In this document: one piece after another, positions 1 through 1,196 of the stretch
Layout: the number at the start of each line of letters is the position of its first letter
How positions within the stretch are numbered: the first letter of the stretch is position 1
NCBI GenBank assembly: GCA_000004985.1
Contig: GG739509.1
Strand: one strand, 5' to 3'
Length of the DNA: 1,196 nucleotides
Origin: Naegleria gruberi
Lineage: Eukaryota
The notes under the pieces: generated by a model
The model's input: only the letters and a program-made list of their open reading frames with translations
Database searches by the model: none
Told to the model about the DNA's origin: nothing
Program-made: the position numbers and the translations under genes

Positions 1-73
1 TTTGACATTGACAAGTATTATAATCAATACAAATACCATGTGAAGAACAAACTTGTGAGGAATTTGAGGAATT
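1..73 (-). CDS. Probable continuation of the same CDS in the -1 frame, completing EGF-like unit 5; the 3' end runs off the window at base 1. The frame break at about 73-75 indicates a frameshift, a sequencing error or a pseudogenised copy.
   Basis: Read with codon first bases at plus positions congruent to 1 mod 3 (73..71 = AAT), the translation is NSSNSSQVCSSHGICIDYNTCQCQ. This matches the consensus of the preceding units (SNSS.VCS.HG.C..YNTC.C). It also restores the exact 10-residue C1-C2 spacing when joined to ENTICFG, which ends at codon 75..73. The Gly codon 75..73 and the Asn codon 73..71 overlap by one base, as expected if a single nucleotide is missing. Neither frame has a stop before base 1. 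Confidence 0.55.
56..73. repeat. Perfect 9-bp tandem duplication, tgaggaatt x2 on the plus strand. It lies in codon register with the shifted frame and encodes NSS-NSS on the minus strand.
   Basis: Plus-strand bases 56-64 and 65-73 are identical (tgaggaatt). The second copy abuts the inferred one-nucleotide frame break at 73-75. An EcoRI site (gaattc, 69-74) overlaps the junction. Confidence 0.7.
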
Positions 74-1196
74 CCAAAGCAGATTGTATTTTCGCAATAC
101 TTTCCAAAGTAATTGGATTTACATTTACATGTTTCATACGAGGTACAAGGTCCTTTGGCATTACAGACAGTTGATGAATTTGAAAGTATAGAGCCACAAG
201 TTGTTACATTACAATTATGTCCATAATATTGAGAATCACAAACACATGTATCAGTTTCTACACATGCACCGTGTGAGCTGCAAACTTGGGAATACGTATT
301 TTGAAGTCCAAAACATTCTAAAACCTCACAATTACTACCTGAACTACCAGGAGCACAAACACAAGTGTTATATTCTACACATCTTCCATGTCTTGAACAA
401 ACATTAGAAGAATTGGAAGCAACACCACTACAATATGTATTTTCACAGTAAGCACCAAAATGGTTGCTATCACATTTACAAGTGTTATAGTCAATGCATT
501 TACCATTTCTCGAACATACACTCGTATTGGTAGCCATTATATCATAGCAGATAGGTTTACAAGTAAATCCACCATATCCTGTGGGACATGTTGCCTTAAT
601 AGATCTAATCAATCCATTTTTAGCATCTGCTATCAATAACTCATTGCCTGACAAGAACAATCCTGCAGGATCATCAAACTTGGCGTCACTCAATTCACTC
701 TGGTCTTGTGCAATATGCATTCCAATGGTTGAAAATTTTCCAGAAAGTATGTTAATAGTTTTTCCATCAGAAGAAACATATCTAATATAGTTTGATCCAG
801 AATCTGTGAAAATGATGGTTCCATCCTCAGCAACCGTTAATCCCTTTGGAGTATTTAAAGATGCACTTGTTGGTAATCCACCATCTTTACTCAAGGATTC
901 AGTAGTTGCTCGAACACCATTTCCAGCAATTGTTGAGATTTTACCAGTGGAAGCTGTTACAAGTCTAATTTTGTGGTTTAAGGTGTCTGTGAAATAAATG
1001 TCACCTCCATCTGTCACAAAAAGACCATTCGGAAGATTCAATTTAGCCATTGTTGCTAAACCGCCATCTCCACAACTACTAGATGAATTGCTACAAGTTT
1101 CACCAGTACCAGCTACTGTTATAATTGTTCCATTTGTCAAAATTTTACGAATACGATTATTACCACCATCACTGAAATAGATTGATCCATCCTTGT
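73..1196 (-). CDS. Partial CDS, with the N-terminal side running off the window at 1196. It encodes an extracellular-type protein with NHL-repeat beta-propeller blades followed by tenascin/teneurin-type EGF-like repeats.
   Basis: Reverse-complement frame with codon first bases at plus positions divisible by 3 (first full codon 1194..1192 = AAG). It stays open for about 373 codons in sequence of roughly 33% GC, where stops would be frequent by chance. Translation begins KDGSIYFSDGGNNRIRKILTNGTIITVAGTGETCSNSSSSCGDGGLATMAKLNLPNGLFVTDGGDIYFTDTLNHKIRLVTASTGKISTIAGNG and continues through ATCPTGYGGFTCKPICYDIMATNTSVCSRNGKCIDYNTCKCDSNHFGAYCENTYCSGVASNSSNVCSRHGRCVEYNTCVCAPGSSGSNCEVLECFGLQNTYSQVCSSHGACVETDTCVCDSQYYGHNCNVTTCGSILSNSSTVCNAKGPCTSYETCKCKSNYFGKYCENTICFG. 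The repeated domain motifs are listed in the two domain features below. The ORF is absent from the supplied track, presumably because it has no stop and no defined start inside the window. Confidence 0.88.
595..1196 (-). other. NHL-repeat region: at least four blades of a beta-propeller, the first cut by the window edge.
   Basis: Four units each show the P.GL(F/T) ... DG(G).IYF(T/S)D..N..IR.(I/V) ... G pattern that defines NHL repeats. Blade A is about 1102..1196 (DGSIYFSDGGNNRIRKILTNGTIITVAGTG). Blade B is about 916..1068 (DGGLATMAKLNLPNGLFVTDGGDIYFTDTLNHKIRLVTASTGKISTIAGNG). Blade C is about 739..903 (KDGGLPTSASLNTPKGLTVAEDGTIIFTDSGSNYIRYVSSDGKTINILSG). Blade D is about 595..708 (FDDPAGLFLSGNELLIADAKNGLIRSIK). 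Matching to this family is by eye from the motif; a profile search was not possible. Confidence 0.75.

Follow-up and report, generated by a model that had tools for sequence, protein, structure and literature searches.

The stretch of DNA considered here (the window) is an entire 1196-bp contig of Naegleria gruberi, and it probably encodes an internal piece of the ectodomain of a cell-surface protein that belongs to a large NHL-EGF family of the genus Naegleria. The gene has been catalogued before; the family is large, lineage-specific, uncharacterised and ordinary in kind. A first-pass annotation, made from the letters alone, had read the same DNA as a teneurin-like toolkit in inverted order, with an NHL propeller placed in front of an EGF array. 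What sort of protein is this, and how much should one make of its likeness to teneurins?

A single stop-free reading frame of 398 codons fills the minus strand (window 1-1194) and runs past the contig edge at either side; the remaining five frames are riddled with stops, the longest open reading frame on the plus strand being 69 aa, and an Rfam scan of both strands of the window gave no match. The AT-rich eukaryotic source that had been guessed from the letters is indeed the right one, namely N. gruberi (GC of the DNA, 36%; GC3 of the frame, 0.20). The frame matches “predicted protein, partial [Naegleria gruberi]” at 100%, and that public model (XP_002667988.1/EFC35244.1, 237 aa) spans aa 49-285 of the frame only. 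The protein is the sole member of its 90% cluster and the representative of its own 50% cluster, and it has no relative above 50% identity. On its own, the fragment is a predicted protein of an ordinary kind that has been deposited already, so that little is added by the fragment alone.

The N-terminal half is an NHL propeller. Pfam assigns it to TEN_NHL (E=5e-13, 49.2 bits against a cut-off of 27.1) and to NHL (E=7e-9, 35.7 bits against 20; the NHL repeat is PF01436/PF25021), and SGL/SMP-30 (17.2 against 26.3) and Vgb_lyase (17.1 against 50) both stay below cut-off in the window frame, so the scan does not move this half to another propeller family. About four blades lie on the contig, all on the minus strand: one partial, two full and a final one of three strands. 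The partial blade (aa 1-50, window 1045-1194), which is recognised by Pfam, sequence matches, alignment A1 and the structural model, contains a Cys34-x6-Cys41 loop (GETCSNSSSSCG) that adds five residues by comparison with 10 paralogues. The first full blade, LPNGLFVTDGGDIYFTDTLNHKIRLV... (aa 51-110, window 865-1044), has a Pfam NHL match at 52-76 and four model strands within 55-90; the second, TPKGLTVAEDGTIIFTDSGSNYIRYV... (aa 111-170, window 685-864), is seen by Pfam, sequence matches and the model, and it ends in an atypical loop (aa 153-170) of low model confidence. The last blade (aa 171-202, window 589-684) is drawn from model strands 176-200 and alignment A1, and because it is three-stranded, its fourth strand probably comes from the propeller's missing N-terminus.

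An AlphaFold2 run on the single sequence (aa 1-372) was unusable (pLDDT 38.5) and was superseded by a run with the 10 paralogue rows of alignment A1, which gave a mean pLDDT of 87.6 and blades of three to four strands. When this model was searched against the PDB with Foldseek, nearly all of the top 50 matches were NHL propellers, the best being a Bacillus teneurin-like protein (9ifo, E=2e-15), followed by SOQ1, teneurins, NHLRC2 and the Pizza designs. That is, the predicted fold matches solved NHL propellers, with about four of a presumed six blades on the contig. The first-pass annotation had proposed a domain scan and a structure prediction as checks, and both bear out its placing of an NHL propeller at the N-terminal side.

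The propeller gives way to EGF repeats by way of a half-repeat at the junction, C-PTGYGGFT-C-KPI (aa 203-215, window 550-588, minus strand), which is identified by Cys spacing and alignment, has the C5-x8-C6 spacing and has its Cys residues, C203 and C212, together with the following C216, invariant in all 11 of 11 aligned family members. From C216 onward, the Cys spacing is strictly periodic (11, 6, 6, 2, 9 and 5, which makes a unit of 39 residues with six Cys), so that the motif C-x10-C-x5-C-x5-C-x-C-x8-C-x4 occurs four times in the main frame. These are unit 1, CYDIMATNTSVCSRNGKCIDYNTCKCDSNHFGAYCENTY (aa 216-254, window 433-549), unit 2 (aa 255-293, window 316-432), unit 3 (aa 294-332, window 199-315) and unit 4 (aa 333-371, window 82-198), all on the minus strand and each supported by both Pfam and Cys spacing. 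Two Pfam families match, each in four stretches: EGF_2 (PF07974; E=1.2e-12, 48.4 bits against 22.1) and EGF_Teneurin (PF23106; E=5.9e-11, 42.7 bits against 24.3). The claim of EGF-like Cys repeats following the NHL part, with 6 Cys per 39 aa, thus holds in the Pfam scan, in the spacing and in the structure.

In EGF repeats of the tenascin type, the loop between C1 and C2 is short. No such short loop is present here, where the loop is 10 residues long, and EGF_Tenascin (PF18720) stays under its cut-off (18.3 against 25 bits). The closest solved EGF sequences are the repeats of WIF-1, reelin and HHIP, with which the window's units align; the WIF-1 repeats have a loop of three residues, against which the loop of the window is a 7-residue insertion. 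The long loop had been called unusual, and it is real; it is not peculiar to this protein, since it recurs in 79% of 2512 EGF units of the family and, on sequence comparison, marks the Naegleria EGF family as a whole. A glycosylated character had also been read from about eight N-x-S/T sequons, and here the count does not carry the argument. The main frame holds six (eight if a fifth EGF unit, hidden by a frameshift, is added), and composition shuffles give 6.3 +/- 2.1, so that an excess of sequons was set aside as an argument for glycosylation. The loop of unit 3 has no sequon (NTY).

How far does this architecture extend beyond one contig? When aa 150-372 served as the query of an exhaustive HMMER search, 1956 cluster representatives passed E<1e-3 and 287 passed E<1e-30, and among the best 149 representatives, NHL is also present in 20, in about 15 of which it lies N-terminal to and adjoining the EGF array. 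At least 20 cluster representatives align from end to end (aa 2-372, the NHL-EGF junction included) at 30-37% identity, and every cluster that carries a source name (17 of 17) comes from N. gruberi, N. lovaniensis or N. fowleri. In alignment A1 (11 sequences), all 29 Cys columns are invariant. The N. gruberi paralogues XP_002673894.1 (P0213), XP_002674235.1 (P0270) and XP_002670765.1 (P0221) have the same domain order and junction as the window, as has N. lovaniensis XP_044556015.1 (P0173), and the 39-residue EGF unit with its 10-residue loop is shared at 30-37% identity over the fragment; the window protein differs from them in being divergent and in having the extra Cys34-Cys41 loop. The closest family member seen is about 37% identical, and its architecture may for that reason not transfer exactly.

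Other searches yielded less. A word-index search with the junction and EGF half (249 aa, frameshift-corrected) returned the window's own entry and one insect WIF-1 only, and when JGI metagenome contigs were scanned for a flanked and longer copy, NHL-only relatives and no close one came up, the two furthest-extending matches (L006 and L016) being bacterial NHL proteins without EGF. A homologue search with the profile of alignment A1 was dominated by NHL proteins of bacterial origin, about 700 aa in length and probably with about 12 blades, and gave no taxonomy for the EGF family. In the papers searched on Naegleria together with NHL, EGF or teneurin, there was neither a description of the NHL-EGF family nor experimental data on any member of it.

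The full-length paralogues suggest what the contig cuts off. They begin with a signal-peptide-like segment, continue with one to three NHL propellers and the EGF array, and end in a single C-terminal hydrophobic helix followed by a short K/R-rich tail. In three of them (P0213, P0218 and P0241), a Pkinase domain stands after the transmembrane helix in place of the short tail, and another (P0162) combines RGS with about seven hydrophobic segments; 7TM-RGS proteins whose ectodomains carry EGF repeats have been described from N. fowleri (PMC9283941). It is through these paralogues (signal peptide, transmembrane helix, kinase or 7TM-RGS) that the earlier suggestion of a lineage-specific extracellular protein of adhesion or receptor type finds its support. 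For the window's own gene, with the contig ending on both sides, a signal peptide and a membrane anchor are likewise inferred from the paralogues. The layout would then be a signal peptide, one to three six-bladed propellers, an array of 39-residue EGF units, a single transmembrane helix and, beyond it, a tail that is short and basic or else a signalling module. The disulphide-rich EGF array would form a stiff, often glycosylated stalk that keeps the N-terminal propeller off the plasma membrane; the propeller would be the ligand- or partner-binding head; and binding would serve adhesion or relay a signal, according to the cytoplasmic part.

The protein might instead be secreted and soluble, part of a matrix or cyst wall, or GPI-anchored rather than a transmembrane receptor, which we think unlikely. 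Some paralogues do point this way: three (P0160, P0221 and P0264) have no cytoplasmic tail and close with a hydrophobic, GPI-signal-like stretch, the models of three others (P0147, P0174 and P0204) lack an anchor, and the window itself has no transmembrane helix. Against this, in most of the paralogues that are complete, a single, internal transmembrane helix on the C-terminal side precedes a basic tail or a kinase, and the anchorless models also lack a signal peptide, so that they are probably incomplete. (The window's hydrophobic tail FVLHMVFVLIIILVNV was tried as a transmembrane helix and rejected; it is a frameshifted EGF unit.)

That frameshift needs a word of its own. Near window 73-78 on the minus strand, the sequence (TGC TTT GG^A ATT...) appears to have lost one base, and the loss masks a fifth EGF unit; adding one base restores the 10-residue C1-C2 loop of the family. 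The unit, C-F-G-(x)-NSSNSSQVCSSHGICIDYNTCQCQ (window 1-81, minus strand), is cut by the contig end and is legible only after the shift of one base, and the 26 residues that close the main frame (IPQIPHKFVLHMVFVLIIILVNVK) are a frameshift read-through of it and not real sequence. A perfect 9-bp tandem duplication, TGAGGAATT twice over on the plus strand (window 56-73), encodes NSS-NSS in the corrected minus-strand frame. One could take the shift, 73-78 bases from the end of a contig of only 1196 bp with a partial gene model, as the mark of a pseudogene or of a low-quality unplaced assembly fragment whose protein is not made as read. We consider this improbable: the 372 codons before the shift are open in DNA of 36% GC, the family-invariant Cys and Gly are all retained, and the shift lies near a contig end, where base-calling errors are likely to be common.

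Is the protein, then, a teneurin relative, as the names of the Pfam families would invite one to believe? A true relative of teneurins or of bacterial teneurin-like proteins, its domains reshuffled, would have their origin in common and perhaps a toxin-cage machinery too, and the top Pfam models (TEN_NHL, EGF_Teneurin and EGF_TEN) do bear teneurin names, just as the best PDB match by both sequence and fold is the Bacillus protein 9ifo, followed by teneurin-2 and teneurin-4. Yet EGF_TEN itself is under its cut-off in the window frame (48.7 against 65), and the closest solved EGF sequences are those of WIF-1 and reelin, not of a teneurin. The propellers of SOQ1 and NHLRC2 match about as well as those of metazoan teneurins, and ordinary bacterial NHL proteins match better than any of these. 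The blades had been described as close to a teneurin or bacterial-toxin-like flavour, and the scores say otherwise, since the best single stretch reaches 32.7 bits against teneurin-4 and 62 bits against a bacterial teneurin-like protein, compared with 114-119 bits for the window's NHL part against ordinary bacterial NHL proteins; judged by sequence, the blades are of a generic type, most similar to those bacterial proteins.

Teneurins are type II proteins with the order TM-EGF-TTR-FN plug-NHL-YD shell-ABD-Tox-GHH (PMC13018210). Among the parts of this superfold, Pfam finds NHL alone within the window, and at E<=1e-5 the YD/RHS shell, FN-plug, TTR, ABD and Tox-GHH occur in none of 12 full-length paralogues. 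Absence of the YD shell, FN-plug, TTR and Tox-GHH from those 12 means that these proteins are not teneurins, and we regard a teneurin ancestry as very improbable. The resemblance that remains is one of modules and geometry. Like the teneurins and teneurin-like proteins (PDB 6fb3, 7bam and 9ifo), the window has a TEN_NHL propeller and EGF units matched by EGF_Teneurin, and both groups hold an extracellular EGF array between the membrane and a distal propeller; unlike them, the Naegleria family is type I (SP-NHL-EGF-TM) and has no superfold or toxin parts. Because teneurins are type II and the Naegleria proteins type I, the “inverted” order keeps the same membrane geometry; that is, the order follows from type I topology, and the idea of a teneurin toolkit turned around falls away.

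Bacterial contamination of the Naegleria assembly has practically no chance of being right. It is true that the NHL half alone shares 37-40% identity with many NHL proteins of bacteria, which are thus as close as, or closer than, the Naegleria paralogues; but the frame continues into the EGF array, whose relatives, where named, are Naegleria proteins throughout, encoded on scaffolds that measure 35 kb to 1 Mb. GC3, moreover, is 0.20, and the bacterial loci recovered have no EGF part.

In our preferred reading, the window is a fragment of a Naegleria surface protein. The genus, the pathogen N. fowleri included, has a large surface family that makes a candidate repertoire for sensing or adhesion in this deep-branching eukaryote. 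In this family one sees again that the combination of propeller and EGF in an ectodomain, known from animal receptors and teneurins, originates repeatedly through domain shuffling, with no bearing on the origin of teneurins. A bolder proposal, which we hold to be rather doubtful, is that Naegleria independently built an ectodomain with an NHL head on an EGF stalk and joined it to a single-pass tail, a receptor kinase and a 7TM-RGS module, the NHL part perhaps being bacterial. If this were true, the proteins would form a lineage-specific system of surface recognition (for instance of bacterial prey, of self or mates, or of host surfaces in the case of N. fowleri), and an NHL module acquired from bacteria would have its counterpart in the bacterial origin of teneurins on the choanoflagellate/animal line.

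Known systems offer partial parallels to each half of this design. Plant SOQ1 and human NHLRC2 have the same NHL subtype as the window (E of about 2e-17 and 4e-14 by sequence, and 1e-12 to 1e-10 by Foldseek against the model), but their fusion partners are thioredoxin-like rather than EGF, and they are lumenal or cytosolic. In Mycobacterium, PknD-type kinases (PDB 1rwi; E=9e-5 for PknD against the window) place NHL outside the cell as the head of a kinase that spans the membrane once, comparable to the NHL-EGF-TM-Pkinase order of Naegleria P0213, P0218 and P0241, although PknD is bacterial, lacks an EGF stalk and has its kinase N-terminal, in the opposite polarity. Comparable in layout among metazoan proteins are HHIP, with a propeller and then two EGFs, and the YWTD-EGF modules of the LDL receptor, which are secreted or type I and, as here, have the propeller directly before EGF; HHIP and WIF-1, moreover, have EGF repeats among the closest solved sequences to the window. 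These metazoan ectodomains part from the Naegleria proteins in that the propeller families are others, the EGF units far fewer and the 10-residue C1-C2 loop absent.

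Read on the minus strand from window position 1194 to 1, the stretch, an entire small scaffold of 1,196 bp in the assembly of the heterolobosean Naegleria gruberi, is a single open frame of 398 codons with zero stops, open at both ends; the remaining frames carry many stops (the longest plus-strand ORF has 69 aa), GC is 36% with GC3 at 0.20, and a search of both strands for RNA families matched none. A protein search returned EFC35244.1/XP_002667988.1, a 237-aa "predicted protein, partial [Naegleria gruberi]" that is 100% identical to our protein and spans only aa 49-285 (window 340-1050, as against 1-1194 for the frame), from an internal Met at aa 49 to a point within EGF unit 2. 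Because the frame and the EGF periodicity both run on past its two ends, this public model is under-extended. A metagenome scan for a longer copy of the gene, whose ends lie off the contig, found none.

What does the frame encode? Pfam matches, cysteine periodicity, the AlphaFold2 model and Foldseek agree on an NHL propeller part followed by an EGF array, as the first-pass annotation had proposed. TEN_NHL (E=5e-13) and NHL (7e-9) map to about aa 1-200, and EGF_2 (1e-12) and EGF_Teneurin (6e-11) to aa 216-372, in four stretches each; EGF_TEN and EGF_Tenascin fall under the Pfam cut-offs, as do the propeller families Vgb_lyase and SGL/SMP-30, the latter having been named in advance as an alternative. 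From C216 on, the cysteine spacing is 11, 6, 6, 2, 9, 5, repeated four times—a 39-residue unit, C-x10-C-x5-C-x5-C-x-C-x8-C-x4, with exactly the six cysteines and the 10-residue C1-C2 loop that had been read from the DNA—and a half-EGF, C-PTGYGGFT-C, forms the NHL/EGF junction (aa 203-215). AlphaFold2 gave no usable model from the single sequence (pLDDT 38.5); with ten paralogue rows, it reached 87.6 and built three- to four-stranded blades, then EGF-like hairpins. The best PDB fold matches are NHL propellers, first the Bacillus teneurin-like protein 9ifo (E=2e-15), followed by SOQ1, teneurins, NHLRC2 and Pizza designs, and only about four blades are present on the contig.

Some blade loops deserve separate mention. 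At aa 34-41 (window 1072-1095), a loop of one NHL blade has gained an additional Cys-x6-Cys loop with a sequon, ETCSNSSSSCG, which is missing in all 10 aligned paralogues, and paralogue P0210 has another Cys-rich insertion one blade beyond that position. The loop connecting blade 3 to blade 4 (aa 153-170, window 685-738) reads KFSTIGMHIAQDQSELSD, without the usual G-x-G-x-x-G-x-x-GDGG-x-A motif, and is the sole low-confidence stretch of the model (pLDDT <50 at aa 157-163).

The main frame ends in 26 hydrophobic-looking residues, IPQIPHKFVLHMVFVLIIILVNVK, and this tail (FVLHMVFVLIIILVNV) could be taken for a transmembrane helix; it is an artefact of a 1-base frameshift. The adjacent minus-strand frame over window 1-81 reads NSSNSSQVCSSHGICIDYNTCQCQ, a perfect continuation of the array into a fifth EGF unit, and with one base inserted after GG (window 74-75) the sequence reads C-FG(x)NSSNSSQV-C, the 10-residue loop being exactly regained. 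At 73-78 bases from the contig end, the shift could stem from faulty base calling or from a true lesion. Within the same unit, window 56-73 is a perfect 9-bp tandem duplication (TGAGGAATT twice). It codes for NSS-NSS, giving the C1-C2 loop of this unit two sequons in place of one; a single copy would leave a loop of 7 residues against the family's 10. The roughly eight sequons first counted are reached only with this hidden unit. Six are in frame, and, as same-composition shuffles hold 6.3 +/- 2.1, sequons are not enriched.

Searched alone, the EGF half matches EGF repeats of WIF-1, reelin and HHIP, its C1-C2 loop being 7 residues longer than in WIF-1. That loop had been called unusual, but it is not peculiar to this protein: among 2512 EGF-like units in the 149 top relatives, 79% have a 10-residue loop (consensus C-[FY]-G-[IV]-x-S-N-[DN]-S-S-V-C, with a sequon in 55% of such loops), which is therefore a family hallmark. 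Our exhaustive HMMER search with aa 150-372, counted in cluster representatives, matched 1956 at E<1e-3, of which 287 reached E<1e-30; many are very large proteins (2000-7000 aa), in which as many as 25 stretches match at ~40% identity. Giants such as P0122 (N. gruberi XP_002674088.1, 4968 aa) and P0127 (7087 aa), with up to 25 matched 39-residue EGF stretches, gave no NHL match in a local phmmer scan. The 39-residue variant is massively expanded and presumably joined to other head domains. By the same local method, NHL repeats also occur in 20 of the 149 top relatives, and in about 15 of these the NHL region begins at residue 30-60 and directly adjoins the EGF array. At least 20 representatives are colinear with the entire fragment, junction included (BLASTP, 30-37% identity), and every cysteine column is invariant in an 11-sequence alignment.

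All 17 source-named clusters come from N. gruberi, N. lovaniensis or N. fowleri, titled "predicted protein" or "EGF-like domain-containing protein," and the others are metagenome proteins; among named members, the suggested lineage specificity holds. The architecture may reach past the named species, given the domain order at a distant relative's locus on a 4412-bp contig (JBBCKJ010081751.1 of GCA_037189345.1, 42% GC; 29-32% identity): its adjacent ORFs, 591-1997 and 2039-3991, read together across the break between them, appear to specify about 18 NHL blades, preceded by a signal-peptide-like start and followed by EGF units of the same C-x10-C type. We found no description of this large NHL-EGF family in the searchable literature, though it is present in databases.

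Full-length paralogues begin with a hydrophobic, signal-peptide-like segment, continue through NHL regions of ~330, 640 or 1000 residues (one, two or three propellers), and have a single strongly hydrophobic helix near the C-terminus, then a K/R-rich tail; a few instead have a GPI-signal-like hydrophobic stretch at the very C-terminus. The window fragment belongs to an extracellular module in which NHL precedes EGF, and which in paralogues sits between signal peptide and membrane anchor, and the extracellular character first proposed is thereby upheld. In P0213, P0218 (the XP_002676784.1 cluster) and P0241 (N. fowleri), a protein kinase domain lies C-terminal to the helix, so Naegleria has NHL-propeller receptor kinases. 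In paralogue P0162, the same ectodomain is fused to seven hydrophobic segments plus RGS, in agreement with the many N. fowleri 7TM-RGS proteins that carry EGF-repeat ectodomains (PMC9283941). The EGF array would form a rigid, disulphide-locked, often glycosylated stalk, with the propeller at its tip as a putative binding surface (by analogy with the NHL domains of teneurins and the sensor domain of PknD) and with output presumably set by the cytoplasmic part.

How close, then, is all this to teneurins, of which the first-pass annotation saw an inverted version with teneurin-flavoured blades? The best stretch of the window NHL scores 32.7 bits against teneurin-4 and 62 against a bacterial teneurin-like protein, and SOQ1 reaches 66 summed over the whole protein, whereas ordinary bacterial NHL proteins give best single alignments of 114-119 bits (~39% identity); the blades thus show no specific likeness to those of teneurins. 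The NHL half (window 595-1194) scores 84-109 bits against Naegleria paralogues; taken by itself, it is at least as similar to the bacterial proteins as to its own paralogues, a likeness that might arise from repeats close to the consensus or from a module of bacterial origin. Propeller-then-EGF layouts are known in HHIP and LDL-receptor modules. Teneurins are type II proteins (ICD-TM-EGF1-8-Cys-rich-TTR-FN plug-NHL-YD shell-ABD-Tox-GHH) defined by an FN plug/NHL/YD superfold (PMC13018210); RHS/YD repeats, FN-plug, TTR, ABD and Tox-GHH are absent from all 12 paralogues scanned. Because the Naegleria proteins are type I, the reversed order yields the same spatial layout, EGF membrane-proximal and propeller distal. 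The suggestion of a special, inverted kinship with teneurins is wrong. With this fragment, a known type of modular surface protein gains a new and divergent member, within a large Naegleria family; its receptor kinases recall bacterial PknD, but with opposite polarity, and what it has in common with teneurins is two widespread modules, NHL and EGF, and nothing more.
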